NCBI RefSeq assembly: GCF_009931435.1
Contig: NZ_CP043414.1
Source: Escherichia coli
GTDB lineage: Bacteria; Pseudomonadota; Gammaproteobacteria; Enterobacterales; Enterobacteriaceae
DNA length: 64,000 nt
Direction: 5' to 3' (one strand)
The notes under the pieces are model-generated. The model was not told the origin of the DNA. It searched no databases and saw only the letters and a program-made list of their open reading frames with translations. The position numbers were made by a program, and so were the translations under genes. Shown here piece after piece: positions 2,277-61,189 of the stretch. Position 1 is the first letter of the stretch. Each line of letters begins with the position of its first letter.

Positions 2277-2445
2277 CAAAGAAAAAGGCAGCCTGTGGTT
2301 GCCTTTTGCCAATAATTCGCACACATTGCGGGTTACTGCTTTATTTTCGTTCAGTGCTGATAACGAACATCAACCTGCAAAACGAAGCGCATAGTTTAAA
2401 ATGGCTATCATCAATACGCTATATCTGATGGAAAAAAATATGCCT
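2277..2445 (-). ncRNA. sraB: possible SraB small RNA in the yceD leader region; approximate coordinates
   Basis: From memory, SraB maps between yceF and yceD, co-oriented with yceD. No boundary can be read from sequence alone. Confidence 0.25.
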
Positions 2446-3024
2446 AAACTTATTTTAGCCTCCACCTCGCCCTGGCGTCGCGCTCTTCTGGAAAAACTGC
2501 AAATCTCTTTTGAATGTGCAGAACCCGAGGTCGACGAAACCCCACGCAGCGACGAATCACCGCGACAGTTGGTGCTTCGACTGGCACAAGAAAAAGCGCA
2601 ATCTCTGGCGTCACGTTATCCGGATCATTTAATTATTGGTTCAGACCAGGTATGTGTTCTTGATGGCGAAATCACCGGTAAACCGTTAACGGAAGAAAAT
2701 GCCCGTCTGCAATTACGCAAAGCCAGCGGCAATATCGTCACCTTCTATACTGGACTGGCGTTGTTTAATTCGGCGAATGGGCATCTGCAAACAGAAGTGG
2801 AGCCTTTTGACGTCCATTTCCGTCACCTGAGCGAGGCGGAGATTGATAATTACGTGCGTAAGGAGCATCCCCTGCACTGCGCGGGTAGCTTTAAGAGTGA
2901 AGGATTTGGCATTACGCTGTTTGAGCGTTTAGAAGGGCGTGACCATAACACGCTGGTTGGTTTACCGCTAATCGCGCTGTGTCAGATGTTACGTCGGGAA
3001 GGGAAAAATCCGCTGATGGGATAG
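2440..3024 (+). CDS. yceF: Maf-like nucleotide pyrophosphatase YceF
   Basis: Track ORF 2401-3024 trimmed to internal ATG at 2440 ([21 protein letters not shown]...), giving 194 aa. Confidence 0.9.
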
Positions 3025-4306: not shown

Positions 4307-4667
4307 GTTTCCGTGTCCATCCTTGTTAAAACAAGAAATTTTACGGAATAACCCATTTTGCCCGACCGATCATCCACGCAGCAATGGCGTAAGACGTATT
4401 GATCTTTCAGGCAGTTAGCGGGCTGCGGGTTGCAGTCCTTACCGGTAGATGGAAATATTTCTGGAGAGTAATACCCAGTCTGTTTCTTTGATAATTGCGC
4501 TGTTTTTCCGCATGAAAAACGGGCAACCGACACTCTGCGCCTCTTTGAGCTGACGATAACCGTGAGGTTGGCGACGCGACTAGACACGAGGCCATCGGTT
4601 CACACCCGGAAAGGCGTTACTTTGCCCGCAGCTTAGTCGTCAATGTAAGAATAATGAGTAAGTTACG
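4307..4667 (+). promoter_or_regulatory. long rne 5' leader (autoregulatory UTR) and promoter region
   Basis: About 570 bp of non-coding sequence precedes the rne ATG; rne is known to have a ~361-nt structured leader. Boundaries estimated, not read from sequence. Confidence 0.5.
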
Positions 4668-26372: not shown

Positions 26373-26423
26373 TTATCCTTTGTGTCCGGCAAAAACATCC
26401 CTTCAGCCGGAGCATAGAGATTA

Positions 26424-45082: not shown

Positions 45083-45837
45083 GTTGTCACCCTGGACCTG
45101 GTCGTACATTTAAGAAATTAAATCATTTCAACTTAGTTGTTAACGCAACCTGTATTTTGTTAACGCCGCGTTACGATGGAAAGTATGTCTGCGGAAATAT
45201 TTTTAATAACTCACCCGCGCGTTGTATTTTTCTTTTTTTGTTCATACCAAAGTATTAAAACCCACGTAAATACGCTGTTATCTACGCAAAAAAAATATTT
45301 TGTTTTCTTTTAAATTTCGGTTTTCCGCAATCAAAAATCACCAGACAGTCATTCTTCTTGCCCGTCGCTGATTGCTGCGATATGTCTTGCGCACAAGCCG
45401 TGACAAACCTCGTCTTTTTGCAGTAAAAAATTGTCCACGGAGGTGTGGAGAAAAAACAAGAACGTTTTACATGACGAAAGGACTACACCGAAATATTTTT
45501 TATATGCATTATTAGCAAGTTAGCACCATTTGTATGATTTTTTAAAATTGTGCAAGAAAAACCAAATGTACAACTTTTCTATCATTTCTAAACTTAATAA
45601 AACCTTAAGATTAACATTTTAATATAACAAGTTACATTTAGTTACATGTTTAACACTTGATTTAAGATTTGTAATGGCTAGATTGAAATCAGATGTAATC
45701 CATTAGTTTTATATTTTACCCATTTAGGGCTGATTTATTACTACACACAGCAGTGCAACATCTGTCAGTACTTCTGGTGCTTCTATTTTAGAGGCAGCTG
45801 TCAGGTGTGCGATCAATAAAAAAAGCGGGGTTTCATC
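45083..45837. promoter_or_regulatory. csgBAC / csgDEFG divergent control region
   Basis: 755-bp AT-rich divergent spacer; the csgD -10 candidate TAGATT at 45679-45684 places the start site about 148 nt upstream of the csgD ATG. Confidence 0.7.
45631..45656 (+). promoter_or_regulatory. OmpR-binding site of the csgD promoter
   Basis: gttacatttagttacatgtttaacac, tandem GTTACAT half-sites just upstream of the csgD -35 region. Confidence 0.6.
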
Positions 45838-51381: not shown

Positions 51382-51469
51382 GGTGAGGTGTCCGAGTGGC
51401 TGAAGGAGCACGCCTGGAAAGTGTGTATACGGCAACGTATCGGGGGTTCGAATCCCCCCCTCACCGCCA
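51382..51469 (+). tRNA. serX: tRNA-Ser (anticodon GGA), CCA encoded
   Basis: ggtgaggtgtccgagtggctgaaggagcacgcctggaaagtgtgtatacggcaacgtatcgggggttcgaatccccccctcaccgcca; long variable arm, T-loop GGTTCGAATCC, anticodon GGA. Confidence 0.93.
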
Positions 51470-51931
51470 TCTTTAAAGAAGAGCTCGTACGAAAGTACGG
51501 GCTTTTTTTTCGTATATTGCACACACCGGGGGGATGAGAAGCCCCGACAGGGGTTCGACAACTGGCGACAGCCAGTTGGACAGACCGTGAACGCAGTGAG
51601 CGGGCTGCCCGCAGGGCGAGCGAAGCGAGTCAATCCCCCCCTCACCGCCATCTTTAAAGAAGAGCTCGTACGAAAGTACGGGCTTTTTTTTTGTATATTG
51701 CACACACCGGGGGGATGAGAAGCCCCGACAGGGGTTCGACAACTGGCGACAGCCAGTTGGACAGACCGTGAACGCAGTGAGCGGGCTGCCCGCAGGGCGA
51801 GCGAAGCGAGTCAATCCCCCCCTCACCGCCATCTTTAAAGAAGAGCTCGTACGAAGGTACGGGCTTTTTTTTCGTATATTGCACACACCGGGGGATGAAA
51901 AGCCCCGACCGGGGTTCGACAACTGGCGACA
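51470..51931 (+). repeat. tRNA-linked tandem direct repeat array: about 2.5 copies of a 181-bp unit, each ending with the 3'-terminal 19 nt of serX
   Basis: Copies at 51470-51650, 51651-51831 and a truncated copy at 51832-51931. Copies 1 and 2 differ by one C/T; copy 3 has about four substitutions or indels. The tRNA 3'-end motif aatccccccctcaccgcca recurs at 51451-51469, 51632-51650 and 51813-51831. Confidence 0.9.
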
Positions 51932-51934
51932 AAC

Positions 51935-53302
51935 TCAATCATCATCCTTGCAGTTGATAAGAATTTCTGCCTCTTTTACAACTATCTTATTACGTCCGGT
52001 TTCTTTCGCTTCATATAGTGCATTATCAGCCATTCGATAGATTTCATTCGGATTTAACGCACTTCCCTGAGTCACCACAGCGCCAATGCTAATCGTCACT
52101 TTTTGCGGTATGGCGTATTCAGGATTATCGCCTGTCAAACGCTCTACATTTGCCCTTATCCTTTCGGCTAAAACTTTCGCGCTTTCAGTATCGGTCTCCG
52201 TCAGCAAGACGCCAAACTCTTCGCCGCCAACGCGTGCTAAAAGGTCATTTGGTCGTATGCTTTTCCCAATGATGCTCACCACTGTTTTTATCACCTGATC
52301 GCCAACCGGATGCCCCCACGTATCGTTAACTTTTTTAAAGTGATCGATATCCATAATCATGACACAATAAGACGTTTTTTGGGCTGATGCTGATTGAGCC
52401 TTCAGTTCATTGAAAAAATAATTCCTGTTAAATATATTAGTTAATGGATCGCGATGGGCAATGTTCTTTGTTACTCGTAGCGCACTGAAAATATGGCACA
52501 TAAATATTACCATAACGGTTAATTTACTGACTACTTCAATAGTGCGGCTAATATACCAAGTGGACACACTATACCTGCTCATAAATAACAGAGAGATATT
52601 ATACAGCACGGCACAGAAAGCAATCACTGATACTCCATTCCAGATATCACAGCGTAAACCATTAAAGTATAGATTAACCAAAAGCAAGATTAACCACATG
52701 AAAATTATTATGGTAACATATGAGGTTTTCCAGACTACCTGACCATTTTCATTTGTTAACTCGGCAATATGTAAACTGTAGTCATCATAATGACTACTTA
52801 GCATGTGAGCAACTGCCGCCCCCCCATAAATAAAAAATAGGCTTATACACAATGTCATTTTTTTGGAAAAAAAACAGCGTTTCTTATTGTTTTCACTAAC
52901 TTTATTCACCAGCGCTAGCAATATTAACATGCACAAACTCATCTGACGAAACAAATAATAAATTGCAATATCATTTTGTACAACGCTGCTTATCAAATGC
53001 CCCTCAATAAATTGCTGAATGATAATGACAGTTTTAACAAAGTAAATCAAACAACTCAGAAACGCTAAACTAAGTATACAGTTTGAAAATTGCACACGAT
53101 CATAAATGAAATACAATTGCATGAAAATAAATGCAACGGTATCGATAAAAAATAAAGCAATCATAACCATTAGATAGGTTGATCGTGGAACAACCTCCTC
53201 AACGGTTGGCTGATTAAACCAACTATTTACCAAAACGAATGCAAGCCCAAACAATAAGCTCACCAATACAGTACTACTAATTCCCAAATAGTCTTTTTCC
53301 AT
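51935..53302 (-). CDS. dgcT: diguanylate cyclase DgcT (YcdT), MASE4 membrane domain plus GGDEF
   Basis: Track ORF trimmed to ATG at 53300-53302 (MEKDYLGISSTVLVSLLFGLAFVLVNSWF...), about 455 aa; GGDEF active-site variant RVGGEEFGVLL. Confidence 0.9.
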   Translation of the reverse strand: MEKDYLGISSTVLVSLLFGLAFVLVNSWFNQPTVEEVVPRSTYLMVMIALFFIDTVAFIFMQLYFIYDRVQFSNCILSLAFLSCLIYFVKTVIIIQQFIEGHLISSVVQNDIAIYYLFRQMSLCMLILLALVNKVSENNKKRCFFSKKMTLCISLFFIYGGAAVAHMLSSHYDDYSLHIAELTNENGQVVWKTSYVTIIIFMWLILLLVNLYFNGLRCDIWNGVSVIAFCAVLYNISLLFMSRYSVSTWYISRTIEVVSKLTVMVIFMCHIFSALRVTKNIAHRDPLTNIFNRNYFFNELKAQSASAQKTSYCVMIMDIDHFKKVNDTWGHPVGDQVIKTVVSIIGKSIRPNDLLARVGGEEFGVLLTETDTESAKVLAERIRANVERLTGDNPEYAIPQKVTISIGAVVTQGSALNPNEIYRMADNALYEAKETGRNKIVVKEAEILINCKDDD

Positions 53303-53649
53303 AAAGCTACACCAATCTGTAGGTTGTAGATCCCTTTCTGTCACTAATAGATATAAGAACTGTACTGTTGTCAATATAAAAATCCACCACAAACAATACC
53401 AATGATGATAGTTGCAGACCGCAATTATTATTACCTTAGTGCTTTATACATTCTTCGCGACAAGACAGGCTTGCAAATACATATAAATGGTTATAAGGAA
53501 ATCCTTATAAAACATTAATTCATAGATATATTAGGAATAACAATTGAATCCGTGAGTACAGTAACGCTGCATTTCATCAGGACTTTCGAAAAATCCGATA
53601 TCATGCATCGGAATTTACTGATTTAATTATTTTAATCCTAATTTATTTT

Positions 53650-53891
53650 GAAAAAGGCATTGGAATTTATGCCGTATTCCTGAAGTTCCTCATCATTGGA
53701 ATGGATTTTCGGGCGAGAAAAGGATTTTATATGGATACTCTACTCATCATTTCTTCTTCTCATCATCAACAATTCACGTCTCTCTTCCGCGTTTAATAAC
53801 GGATTATGATGTGCATAAAAAATATCTTTCGTTTCAGTTACCTGTAATTAGATACAGAGAGAGATTTTGGCAATACATGGAGTAATACAGG
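53650..53891 (+). promoter_or_regulatory. pgaA 5' leader with multiple GGA motifs (CsrA-type)
   Basis: GGA motifs recur in ...ttggaatggatt..aaaggatt..tatggata..cggattatg..catggagtaatacaggATG, including one in the Shine-Dalgarno. The pgaA leader is a known CsrA target; boundaries estimated. Confidence 0.5.
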
Positions 53892-56315
53892 ATGTATTCA
53901 AGTAGCAGAAAAAGGTGCCCGAAAACCAAATGGGCTTTGAAAATTCTTACTGCCGCATTTTTAGCAGCGAGTCCCGCGGCGAAGAGTGCTGTTAATAATG
54001 CCTATGATGCATTGATTATCGAAGCTCGCAAGGGAAATACTCAGCCAGCTTTGTTATGGTTTGCACAAAAATCAGCACTCAGTAATAACCAAATTGCTGA
54101 CTGGTTACAGATTGCCTTATGGGCCGGGCAAGATAAACAGGTTATTACCGTTTACAACCGCTACCGTCATCAGCAATTACCAGCGCGTGGTTATGCAGCT
54201 GTCGCCGTCGCTTATCGTAACCTGCAACAATGGCAAAACTCGCTTACACTGTGGCAAAAGGCACTCTCTCTGGAGTCGCAAAATAAGGATTATCAACGGG
54301 GACAAATTTTAACCCTGGCAGATGCGGGTCACTATGATTCTGCGCTGGTTAAACTTAAGCAGCTTAACTCTGGAGCACCGGACAAAGCTAATTTACTCGC
54401 AGAAGCCTATATCTATAAACTGGCGGGGCGGCATGAGGATGAATTACGGGCGATGACAGGGTCATTACCTGAAAATGCCTTAACGCAACAATATCCCACA
54501 GAATACGTGCAGGCATTACGGAATAATCAACTTGCTGCCGCGATTGACGATGCCAATTTAACGCCAGATATTCGCGCTGATATTCATGCCGAACTGGTCA
54601 GACTGTCGTTTATGCCTACGCGCAGTGAAAGTGAACGTTATGCCATTGCCGATCGCGCCCTCGCCCAATACGCTGCATTAGAAATTCTGTGGCATGATAA
54701 CCCTGACCGCACTGCCCAGTACCAGCGTATTCAGGTTGATCATCTTGGCGCGTTATTAACTCGCGATCGTTATAAAGACGTTATTTCTCACTATCAGCGT
54801 TTAAAAAAGACGGGGCAAATTATTCCGCCCTGGGCGCAATATTGGGTTGCGTCGGCTTATCTCAAAGAACATCAGCCAAAAAAAGCACAGTCAATAATGA
54901 CAGAGATCTTTTATCACAAGGAGACCATTGCCCCGGATTTATCCGATGAAGAACTTGCGGATCTCTTTTACAGCCACCTGGAGAGTGAAAATTATCCCGG
55001 CGCGCTAACTGTCACCCAACATACCATTAATACTTCGCCGCCTTTCCTTCGGTTAATGGGCACGCCTACGAGCATCCCGAATGATACCTGGTTACAGGGG
55101 CATTCGTTTCTCTCAACCGTAGCAAAATATAGTAATGATCTTCCTCAGGCTGAAATGACAGCCAGAGAGCTTGCTTATAACGCACCAGGAAATCAGGGAC
55201 TGCGCATTGATTACGCGAGTGTGTTACAAGCCCGCGGTTGGCCTCGTGCGGCAGAAAATGAATTAAAAAAAGCAGAAGTGATCGAGCCACGTAATATTAA
55301 TCTGGAGGTTGAACAAGCCTGGACAGCATTAACGTTACAAGAATGGCAGCAGGCAGCGGTCTTAACGCACGATGTTGTCGAACGTGAACCGCAAGATCCC
55401 GGCGTTGTACGTTTAAAACGTGCGGTTGATGTACATAATCTTGCAGAGCTTCGTATCGCTGGTTCAACAGGAATTGATGCCGAAGGTCCGGATAGTGGCA
55501 AACATGATGTCGACTTAACCACCATCGTTTATTCACCACCGCTGAATGATAACTGGCGCGGTTTTGCTGGATTCGGTTATGCCGATGGACAATTTAGCGA
55601 AGGAAAAGGGATTATTCGCGACTGGCTTGCGGGTGTTGAGTGGCGGTCACGTAATATCTGGCTTGAGGCGGAGTACACCGAACGCTTTTTCAATCATGAG
55701 CATAAACCCGGCGCGCGCCTGTCTGGCTGGTATGATTTTAATGATAACTGGCGTATTGGTTCGCAACTGGAACGCCTCTCTCACCGCGTTCCATTACGGG
55801 CAATGAAAAATGGTGTTACAGGCAACAGTGCACAGGCTTATGTTCGCTGGTATCAAAATGAGCGGCGTAAGTACGGTGTCTCTTGGGCTTTCACTGATTT
55901 TTCTGACAGTAATCAGCGTCATGAAGTCTCACTTGAGGGTCAGGAACGCATCTGGTCTTCACCATATTTGATTGTCGATTTCCTCCCCAATCTGTATTAC
56001 GAACAAAATACAGAACACGACACCCCATACTACAACCCTATAAAAATGTTCGATATTGTTCCGGCATTTGAGGCAAGTCATTTGTTATGGCGAAGCTATG
56101 AAAATAGCTGGGAGCAAATCTTCAGCGCAGGTGTTGGTGCCTCCTGGCAAAAACATTATGGCACGGATGTCGTCACCCAACTCGGCTACGGGCAACGCAT
56201 TAGCTGGAATGACGTGATTGATGCTGGCGCAACGCTACGCTGGGAAAAACGACCTTATGACGGTGACAGAGAACACAACTTATACGTTGAATTCGATATG
56301 ACATTCAGATTTTAA
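53892..56315 (+). CDS. pgaA: poly-beta-1,6-N-acetylglucosamine outer-membrane export porin PgaA
   Basis: 807-aa ORF MYSSSRKRCPKTKWALKILTAAFLAASPAAKSAVNNAYDALIIEARKGN... (TPR region plus C-terminal beta-barrel). Confidence 0.96.
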   Translation: MYSSSRKRCPKTKWALKILTAAFLAASPAAKSAVNNAYDALIIEARKGNTQPALLWFAQKSALSNNQIADWLQIALWAGQDKQVITVYNRYRHQQLPARGYAAVAVAYRNLQQWQNSLTLWQKALSLESQNKDYQRGQILTLADAGHYDSALVKLKQLNSGAPDKANLLAEAYIYKLAGRHEDELRAMTGSLPENALTQQYPTEYVQALRNNQLAAAIDDANLTPDIRADIHAELVRLSFMPTRSESERYAIADRALAQYAALEILWHDNPDRTAQYQRIQVDHLGALLTRDRYKDVISHYQRLKKTGQIIPPWAQYWVASAYLKEHQPKKAQSIMTEIFYHKETIAPDLSDEELADLFYSHLESENYPGALTVTQHTINTSPPFLRLMGTPTSIPNDTWLQGHSFLSTVAKYSNDLPQAEMTARELAYNAPGNQGLRIDYASVLQARGWPRAAENELKKAEVIEPRNINLEVEQAWTALTLQEWQQAAVLTHDVVEREPQDPGVVRLKRAVDVHNLAELRIAGSTGIDAEGPDSGKHDVDLTTIVYSPPLNDNWRGFAGFGYADGQFSEGKGIIRDWLAGVEWRSRNIWLEAEYTERFFNHEHKPGARLSGWYDFNDNWRIGSQLERLSHRVPLRAMKNGVTGNSAQAYVRWYQNERRKYGVSWAFTDFSDSNQRHEVSLEGQERIWSSPYLIVDFLPNLYYEQNTEHDTPYYNPIKMFDIVPAFEASHLLWRSYENSWEQIFSAGVGASWQKHYGTDVVTQLGYGQRISWNDVIDAGATLRWEKRPYDGDREHNLYVEFDMTFRF

Positions 56316-60124: not shown

Positions 60125-61189
60125 TTAACTGTATGCATGTAGCGTACGTTGGCAAAGTGCCGAACGTACGCAATCCTCTTTACCGAATCGGACGATCCCG
60201 ACCATTTCATCTTCTTCGAAACGTTCCAGCGCGTCACTTAATCCGGAGCGCACGCCGCGAGGCAAATCGCATTGCGTGATATCACCGTTGACGATAACCG
60301 TCACGTTCTCCCCGAGGCGGGTTAAAAACATTTTCATTTGCGCGGCAGTCACATTCTGCGCCTCGTCAAGAATGACGACTGCATTTTCAAAGGTACGTCC
60401 ACGCATATAGGCGAACGGCGCGATTTCCACCTTCCCTATTTCCGGTCGCAGGCAGTACTGCATAAAGGAAGCCCCTAAGCGCCGGACCAGCACGTCGTAG
60501 ACCGGACGAAAATAGGGAGCAAACTTTTCTGCGATATCTCCAGGTAAGAAGCCAAGATCTTCATCGGCTTGCAGAACTGGACGGGTGACGATAATCCTGT
60601 CGACATCCTTATGTATCAGGGCCTCTGCCGCTTTTGCTGCGCTGATCCAGGTTTTTCCGCACCCGGCTTCGCCGGTGGCGAATATCAGCTGCTTACTCTC
60701 AATAGCCTTCAGATAGTGCAATTGCGCTTCATTTCGCGCGAGGATGGGCGAGGTATCGCGACTGTCGCGGGCCATACCAATGGCTTCTACGCCGCTCATC
60801 TGCACAAGCGAGGTGACCGATTCTTCTTCACGCTGCTTATGGCTGCGCGAATCCCGTCTCAGCACACGTTTTGCCTCGCGACGAGCTTTGATCACTGCTT
60901 TTTGTCTTCCCATGGAGAGCACCTTGAGTTGTTTGTATTCATCACACGCGCCGTTGGCAGCGCGATTATGCGCACGAACATCAGAGGGTTGGCTTCCTTG
61001 TAAGCCATAGTTTGCTTTTGGATAAAATGCCGAAAAACGGCTACGCGCACCGTTTACGGCGTCGGTAACACATGAAAAGAAAGGTTGAGGTTGAAAATGC
61101 AAAGTGACGAGATGACTACCGGAGGAGAAATCTCCGCGAGTGGTGGAGCGTTGCTTAACAAAACATTGTCCAGTACAGGACGTTACCAT
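60125..61189 (-). CDS. phoH: phosphate starvation-inducible ATPase PhoH
   Basis: 354-aa ORF MVTSCTGQCFVKQRSTTRGDFSSGSHLVTLHFQ...; Walker A GEAGCGKT in the C-terminal domain. Confidence 0.93.
   Translation of the reverse strand: MVTSCTGQCFVKQRSTTRGDFSSGSHLVTLHFQPQPFFSCVTDAVNGARSRFSAFYPKANYGLQGSQPSDVRAHNRAANGACDEYKQLKVLSMGRQKAVIKARREAKRVLRRDSRSHKQREEESVTSLVQMSGVEAIGMARDSRDTSPILARNEAQLHYLKAIESKQLIFATGEAGCGKTWISAAKAAEALIHKDVDRIIVTRPVLQADEDLGFLPGDIAEKFAPYFRPVYDVLVRRLGASFMQYCLRPEIGKVEIAPFAYMRGRTFENAVVILDEAQNVTAAQMKMFLTRLGENVTVIVNGDITQCDLPRGVRSGLSDALERFEEDEMVGIVRFGKEDCVRSALCQRTLHAYS

Follow-up and report, generated by a model that had tools for sequence, protein, structure and literature searches.

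The window, a stretch of 64,000 nucleotides from the Escherichia coli chromosome, carries the genes csgDEFG, ycdZ, ycdY, ycdX, ghrA, serX, dgcT, and pgaABCD in this order. The tRNA gene serX and the repeat array behind it are located on the plus strand and dgcT (ycdT) on the minus strand, which confirms the convergent geometry proposed in a preliminary description of this DNA. dgcT in turn is divergent from pgaABCD, with pgaA on the plus strand, and this synteny was found to be identical at every locus examined. The start codon of dgcT is an ATG at 53302 (minus strand) and its stop codon occupies positions 51935–51937. As the array ends at 51931, only 3 nt separate the two, so that the earlier statement that the repeats run to within 4 nt of the stop codon was correct. 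The features of the interval are the following.

51382–51469, plus strand: serX, tRNA-Ser(GGA) (ARAGORN; Rfam tRNA, 53.8 bits)
51451–51631, plus strand: tRNA-linked repeat (TLR/RtT) unit 1 of 181 bp, comprising the 19-nt 3' end of serX, a terminator and a tRNA-like body (Tandem Repeats Finder, repeat search, Rfam RtT match at 51514–51650)
51632–51812, plus strand: TLR/RtT unit 2, 99% identical to unit 1 (Tandem Repeats Finder, repeat search, Rfam RtT match at 51695–51831)
51813–51931, plus strand: truncated TLR unit 3, 0.66 of a unit (alignment of the units)
51456–51469, 51637–51650, and 51818–51831, plus strand: 14-bp core CCCCCTCACCGCCA (exact match)
51475–51510, plus strand: predicted intrinsic terminator T1 of serX, AAAGAAGAGCTCGTACGAAAGTACGGGCTTTTTTTT (predicted fold −20.4 kcal/mol, z −5.3)
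51656–51691, plus strand: predicted terminator T2, the copy in unit 2 (terminator scan)
51837–51872, plus strand: predicted terminator T3, the copy in unit 3 (predicted fold −20.5 kcal/mol, z −6.1)
51932–51934, no strand assigned: spacer AAC of 3 nt between the end of the array and the dgcT stop codon (sequence)
51935–51976, minus strand: dgcT stop codon and codons 443–455 (KEAEILINCKDDD), the haplotype-specific tail (alignment)
51935–53302, minus strand: dgcT (ycdT), 455 amino acids (Pfam, alignment, RefSeq annotation of the near-identical strain WL297)
53892–56315, plus strand: pgaA

A single array was detected by Tandem Repeats Finder (51451–51931, period 181, 2.7 copies, 98% matches), and a repeat search placed the beginnings of the units at 51451, 51632, and 51813. 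The array lies directly downstream of the tRNA gene and starts inside its 3' end, the last 19 nt of serX being at the same time the first 19 nt of unit 1. This 19-nt sequence, AATCCCCCCCTCACCGCCA, opens each unit and closes both full units; the terminator hairpin comes next, and the remainder of the unit, about 115 nt in length, has a cloverleaf-like predicted fold (−60.2 kcal/mol, z −3.4). The third unit is cut in the loop of a hairpin, CAACTGGC-GACA-GCCAGTTG. Repeats of this kind are the tRNA-linked repeats (TLRs), reportedly the subject of work by Egan and Landy in 1978 and by Rudd in 1999. When compared to the Rfam RtT model RF00391 the units of the window score 41.7 bits (E 4.5e-6), which is below the gathering score of 45, and the orthologous units of a K-12-like genome score 46.3 bits, which is above it. 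The units of the window fall just short because of one substitution, of a stem base, relative to the K-12-type units. The serX units of K-12-like genomes carry the RefSeq/PGAP annotation ‘RtT sRNA’. To our knowledge no RNA product of the serX TLR units has been described, and a literature search linking RtT with serX found nothing specific.

In K-12, 22 TLR copies are distributed over ten loci, the first of which was found behind tyrT, and every copy ends with 18–19 nt of the upstream tRNA or rRNA; according to the same authors no function of the TLRs is known (PMC8144298). The serX array resembles this tyrT prototype, a 178-bp × 3.14 array, in the length of its tandem units (about 180 bp) and their place immediately after a tRNA gene, in the 19 nt of tRNA 3' end contained in each unit and in the match to the RtT covariance model. 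It differs in that the units have a serX-type 3' end with an intrinsic terminator directly after it, and in that a protein-coding gene in convergent orientation is fused to the last unit. The number of copies per locus, 2.7 in the window and 0.7 to about 4.4 in relatives, agrees with the one to five copies that are the norm of the family. Across the strains examined 0.7, 1.7, 2.7, and about 4.4 copies were found, and strain WL297, although 99.5–99.7% identical to the window, lacks one of its units. Such changes in copy number would arise by recombination between repeat units.

The 14-bp core CCCCCTCACCGCCA occurs at exactly three places in the window, with none expected. It is the reverse complement of TGGCGGTGAGGGGG, the 14-bp direct repeat on either side of the serX island OI-48, whose integrase, of the P4 family, uses it (PMC3064760). 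Since the serX interval of the window contains neither an integrase nor an island, the putative attB site is unoccupied; serX sites that are occupied were seen at three other loci (L007, L041, and L043). The window thus shares the site with islands of the OI-48, SpLE1, and SRL-PAI type and has their integrase core in triplicate, but the island itself is absent.

All three terminators predicted on the plus strand consist of a hairpin of 16 pairs and about −20.5 kcal/mol followed by U8, with z about −6 as compared to shuffled sequences. Between the end of the last one and the dgcT stop codon there are 62 nt. In combination with the convergent geometry, which is real, this short distance invites the explanation that read-through from serX yields an antisense RNA over the 3' end of dgcT, which down-regulates the gene and is tuned by the copy number of the repeats. 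[quoted passage not shown] However, the window has three such hairpins (about −20 kcal/mol, with U8 in every case) between serX and dgcT. B2-type strains get by with a single terminator and K-12-type strains have kilobases of island in this place, neither case suggesting that dgcT depends on the arrangement. Regulation by such an antisense RNA is considered improbable, and read-through from serX into dgcT at a substantial level is unlikely given three predicted serial terminators. One to three serX-type terminators would rather insulate dgcT from serX transcription, an effect deduced from the predicted folds.

On the minus strand the palindrome of T3 gives a weak predicted hairpin (−9 kcal/mol, z −2.4) followed by UCUUCUUU, an interrupted U tract, and the terminator scan flagged a terminator-like site at 51861–51848 on this strand. 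We infer from these predictions that the T3 palindrome read on the minus strand may serve as the terminator of dgcT. If it ends the dgcT transcript, the truncated unit 3 would constitute the 3' untranslated region of dgcT and would supply the 62-nt stretch from the stop codon to the terminator palindrome. Like the bidirectional intrinsic terminators of convergent genes, the palindrome is GC-rich and lies between an A tract and a T tract. Compared to these it is strongly asymmetric, with −20.5 kcal/mol and U8 in one direction and −9 kcal/mol and UCUUCUUU in the other. As in the rRNA operons, a TLR of the array is placed between one predicted terminator and the next, behind a gene for a stable RNA. 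One might go further by analogy and propose that the truncated unit was co-opted as the 3' untranslated region and terminator of dgcT and that the serX TLRs, transcribed by read-through, feed into CsrA control of the dgcT–pga biofilm genes, as an insulator or sponge that is adjusted by the number of copies. The link between the serX TLRs and the CsrA-controlled dgcT and pga genes is speculation, and we regard this combined proposal as very improbable. A promoter-like match facing into dgcT was also seen (51916–51945, 9 of 12 positions), which is at chance level.

The DgcT protein of the window consists of a MASE4 domain (amino acids 41–274; Pfam, 5.9e-64) and a GGDEF domain (amino acids 282–439; Pfam, 3.2e-50), with an intact GGEEF motif and RxxD I-site and with RPNDLLARVGGEEF present in the alignment. 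It shares these domains and motifs, as well as its position beside pgaA, with the known DgcT (YcdT). To the DgcT proteins of K-12 and of B2 strains it has 88–89% amino acid identity (dS 0.35–0.43). The C-terminus differs from that of K-12. The protein of the window, with a length of 455 amino acids, ends with ...GRNKIVVKEAEILINCKDDD, and the K-12-like protein, with 452 amino acids, ends with ...GRNKVVVRDVVNFCESP, so that a tail of 13 residues (KEAEILINCKDDD) stands against one of 10 residues (RDVVNFCESP). The KEAEILINCKDDD tail is absent from K-12/O157-type loci. DgcT of the window and of WL297 ends with ...KIVVKEAEILINCKDDD, that of a B2-type strain with ...KVVVKEAEILINRKDDE. The tail is located outside the Pfam GGDEF domain, which ends at amino acid 439 in both forms. 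The window can be aligned with the K-12-type locus up to 51931 from the repeat side and up to about 51978 from within dgcT; a finer alignment showed that the first two codons of the K-12 tail (RD) are still homologous to KE. The suspicion that the C-terminus differs from that of K-12 and that a recombination junction lies at the end of the gene was therefore borne out, as the alignment of the two haplotypes breaks inside the last dgcT codons. Repeat or island DNA as the source of the short tail was rejected, since only chance matches of at most 14 nt were found.

What lies between dgcT and the repeats at the other type of locus was seen by comparison with O157:H7 and K-12. In O157:H7 dgcT is followed by pdeT/vmpA (an EAL gene), an island of about 33 kb, ycdU, a TLR remnant, and the OI-48 integrase, and the end of the island contains an intact malonyltransferase gene and ycdU. 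The corresponding interval of K-12 measures 2.76 kb and contains ycdU, a fragment of the ACP S-malonyltransferase gene (ymdE), and an IS3. K-12 equals O157 with an IS3 located 11 bp after the dgcT stop codon and with 31,726 bp missing, a length which matches the published size of OI-47 of 31,727 bp (PMC8565820). K-12 keeps only an IS3-deleted remnant of the OI-47/ycdU island.

Because the IS3 lies immediately downstream of dgcT in K-12-like genomes and the protein there is 3 amino acids shorter, the K-12 tail might be suspected to be an artefact of the insertion, either encoded or truncated by the IS element. This is extremely improbable. The IS3 starts 11 bp past the stop codon, and O157:H7, which has no IS3 at this place, has an identical tail and the same 11 bp downstream, so that a tail encoded by IS3 was rejected and the K-12 tail is instead part of the OI-47/ycdU boundary. 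The K-12 tail always adjoins DNA of the OI-47/ycdU island, and it is with this island and not with the repeat array that the K-12 state is associated. As the boundary of OI-47 is located inside the last dgcT codons, the recombination junction at the end of the gene is real. OI-47 (vmpA/pdeT to ycdU) occupies the same chromosomal site as the serX–dgcT interval of the window, which is without OI-47, and its boundary defines the K-12-type tail of DgcT. On arrival the OI-47/ycdU island would have replaced about 84 bp, consisting of 38 bp of repeat, the 3-nt spacer, the stop codon, and the last dgcT codons, and K-12 would later have lost 31.7 kb of the island next to an IS3.

The frequencies of the two forms were estimated in 5426 complete E. 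coli genomes from RefSeq, a biased sample, and the counts obtained by BLAST with probes of 69 nt are approximate. A 353-nt probe for the body of the gene detected dgcT in 4230 of the 5426 genomes. A 69-nt probe over the junction of the window found the short junction in 1479 of the approximately 4230 dgcT carriers (about 35%), and a matching probe over the K-12 tail found the latter in 2727 (about 65%), so that the two tail classes together cover essentially all dgcT-carrying genomes. Among the carriers of the short form are Nissle 1917, UTI89, and the type strain ATCC 11775. The preliminary description had considered the C-terminus to be possibly strain-specific; it does differ from K-12, but with 1479 genomes sharing the short class it is not specific to a strain. 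An uninterrupted order of serX, repeats, and dgcT like that of the window was found in 1135 genomes, and in others an integrase island lies between serX and the last repeat unit. The arrangement is old and common, and well over a thousand public genomes contain it in annotated form.

The short junction was also found well beyond the allele of the window. The B2 allele, with 89% amino acid identity of DgcT to the window, has the tail xEAExxxNxKDDx. The same tail pattern occurs in a plasmid copy (85% amino acid identity), which is located beside TraG/TraT/Rep3 genes on contigs labelled Salmonella, and in a divergent lineage of Escherichia whose records are labelled E. coli, in which DgcT has 77% amino acid identity and the csgG-ghrA-serX flank 90.2% nucleotide identity. 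In the carriers of all these kinds, as in the window, the TLR unit is cut at one common place, after CAACTGGCGACA(G) and 3–5 nt from the dgcT stop codon; the cut point of unit 3 is identical in the B2-type strain, in the Escherichia locus L010, and in the plasmid copy. Since the junction recurs in other E. coli alleles, in the divergent lineage and on the plasmid, the adjacency of repeat and dgcT is not due to chance. It is quite likely that the window contains the ‘short’ haplotype of the serX–dgcT interval, an old fusion of a TLR with dgcT that keeps the native DgcT tail, and that the tail of K-12 and O157 is derived from the island. The anatomy, the haplotype frequencies, the conservation of the junction, and the link to the island are direct observations in this explanation.

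Three further findings mark the gene end as a recombination junction, namely the hybrid dgcT of strain HH97 described below, the change in repeat copy number between near-identical strains, and the deep divergence of the dgcT allele of the window. The dS of its dgcT relative to K-12 and B2 is 0.35–0.43, as compared to 0.06–0.08 for the flanking genes pgaA and ghrA. The divergent stretch extends from the last repeat unit to about the dgcT start codon, the promoter region being 99–100% B2-like. Fast evolution or positive selection as the cause was rejected, as dN/dS is 0.13–0.15 and dS is 5–6 times that of the flanking genes. The combination of a low dN/dS with such an elevated dS indicates an old or imported allele.

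The 46 bp that are specific to the short type were absent both from the O157 locus (40 kb compared) and from the K-12 locus (30 kb compared), and none of the K-12 tail, ycdU, and pdeT occurs in the window. Neither form can therefore have been obtained from the other by simple deletion or insertion. The short junction is probably ancestral, as it is found in dgcT alleles which are 11–23% apart, in the divergent Escherichia lineage and in the plasmid copy. RDVVNFCESP occurs only in a single group of closely related alleles, to which K-12 and O157 (98.7% identical to each other) belong and which nests next to the B2 allele (92.5%). The short tail is conserved to the same degree as the rest of the protein, with 9 of its 13 residues matching the lineage of 77% identity. 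As it is common to deeply diverged alleles, we infer that KEAEILINxKDDx would be the native, ancestral C-terminus of DgcT and K-12 the derived state. This direction of change is deduced by parsimony over a handful of allele groups, with E. albertii and the named cryptic clades lying outside the sample. A search for DgcT in a collection of species-representative genomes yielded one Escherichia locus (L010) and 26 unrelated GGDEF proteins. The nearest clear outgroup, E. fergusonii, does not polarise the tail change: its DgcT (cluster P0034, 63% amino acid identity) is encoded beside pgaA and not beside serX, with its own terminator and a third, unrelated tail.

The opposite direction has been weighed as well, with the long arrangement of K-12 and O157 being ancestral and the short form being an island deletion which left a new DgcT tail at the scar beside the array. 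Both excision and internal deletion of islands at serX have been described (PMC3064760), and one strain, HH97, has an island-free locus with a K-12-type dgcT body. In HH97 a dgcT of the K-12 type runs through ...RDV and then into short-type tail DNA with a frame shift of one base (RDVRNSYQPQG*); the island is absent, and 0.7 of a repeat unit is present. Yet this hybrid junction was seen once in 5426 genomes, and it shifts the reading frame, which the common short form does not. Furthermore, the short-specific 46 bp have no source in the loci of the long haplotype, the short tail is conserved at the protein level, and the short junction is identical across alleles with dS of 0.35–1.0, the lineage with the 90% flank and the plasmid. 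An ancestral long arrangement has, in our judgement, little chance of being correct.

All components of the locus are known, including TLR/RtT, the serX island hot spot, OI-47 and OI-48, IS3D and ymdE in K-12, and DgcT/YcdT, and nothing points to a new kind of system; the window is an ordinary old haplotype, and the altered gene end belongs to K-12. The papers on YcdT variation that were covered treat the island and the IS element near the gene, and none was found to mention that DgcT has two alternative tails. The comparison calls for caution with the reference strain, as the DgcT which has been studied, that of K-12, has a derived tail and a derived 3' context consisting of an IS3 and an island remnant. 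About a third of the dgcT-carrying E. coli keep the other tail, with a TLR as the 3' flank, and if the tail or the 3' untranslated region affects the stability or expression of DgcT, results from K-12 may not transfer to them. The locus is also a clear example of a TLR array and a tRNA island hot spot shaping the end of a neighbouring gene. Within the short class the exact allele of the window is rare, with about 30 genomes matching it at 99% identity or above, and the C and the final D of its ...INCKDDD end are specific to this allele.

The window segment 51855-53300, which comprises the open reading frame of the diguanylate cyclase gene dgcT and the last repeat unit, forms a local pocket of deep divergence. 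Nucleotide identity to both K-12 and B2 is 87-91% across dgcT as compared to 97-99% in the flanks, and the synonymous divergence (dS) is 0.35-0.43 for dgcT and 0.06-0.08 for pgaA and ghrA. The ratio dN/dS of dgcT is 0.13-0.15, and its promoter region (53278-53678) is 99-100% B2-like. Judged from these sequence comparisons, the divergent stretch looks like an allelic replacement with its limits at the ends of the reading frame. At 51920-51931 the repeat unit fused to dgcT was cut within the four-nucleotide loop of a hairpin with 8 bp in perfect pairing, CAACTGGC-GACA-GCCAGTTG, and this cut was found to be identical in all lineages of the short haplotype which were examined.

The gene end was compared with that of other loci, which are located as follows.

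Loci compared with the dgcT end of the window
9771-9782 of L003: junction of dgcT end and IS3 in K-12-like genomes
1788-33513 of L041: O157 DNA absent from K-12-like genomes
3508-3580 of L042 (E. coli HH97, NZ_CP116409.1): hybrid dgcT end
5001-6540 of L039 and L040 (contigs labelled Salmonella enterica): pgaABC-dgcT copy
4876-6300 of L037 (E. fergusonii-type contig): E. fergusonii DgcT orthologue

In K-12-like genomes 11 bp separate the dgcT stop codon from IS3, and 31,726 bp found in O157 are absent, a loss which reproduces the published size of OI-47. What these genomes retain of this island is ycdU and the ymdE pseudogene. The dgcT end of HH97 is a singleton hybrid with a K-12-type body up to ...RDV followed by DNA of the short-type tail, the fusion being shifted one base out of frame to yield RDVRNSYQPQG*; at this locus the island is absent and the repeat amounts to 0.7 unit.

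The pgaABC-dgcT copy on the Salmonella-labelled contigs has a tail of the short type, and 68 bp of the repeat unit are present with it. As it adjoins TraG, TraT, Rep3, and integrase genes and breaks at GCACTGTTGCAAAG, which we take to resemble an end of the IS6/IS26 family, this biofilm locus has been mobilised on a plasmid. In E. fergusonii the orthologue of DgcT has 63% amino acid identity and its gene adjoins pgaA; on the 3' side it is followed by a terminator of its own and a CadC-like regulator, with neither serX nor the repeats.

Among the 5426 complete E. coli genomes of the collection, about 1200 lack the 3' region of dgcT altogether, which agrees with reports that ycdT and pga are often absent as a pair (PMC5635171).

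Five further matches to Rfam families in the window were above threshold, and all are of the kind to be expected in this region of the E. coli chromosome.

Further Rfam matches in the window
2278-2446: SraB
4307-4643: rne 5' UTR
26374-26423: PyrC leader
45691-45782: ES056
60130-60323: Ysr251
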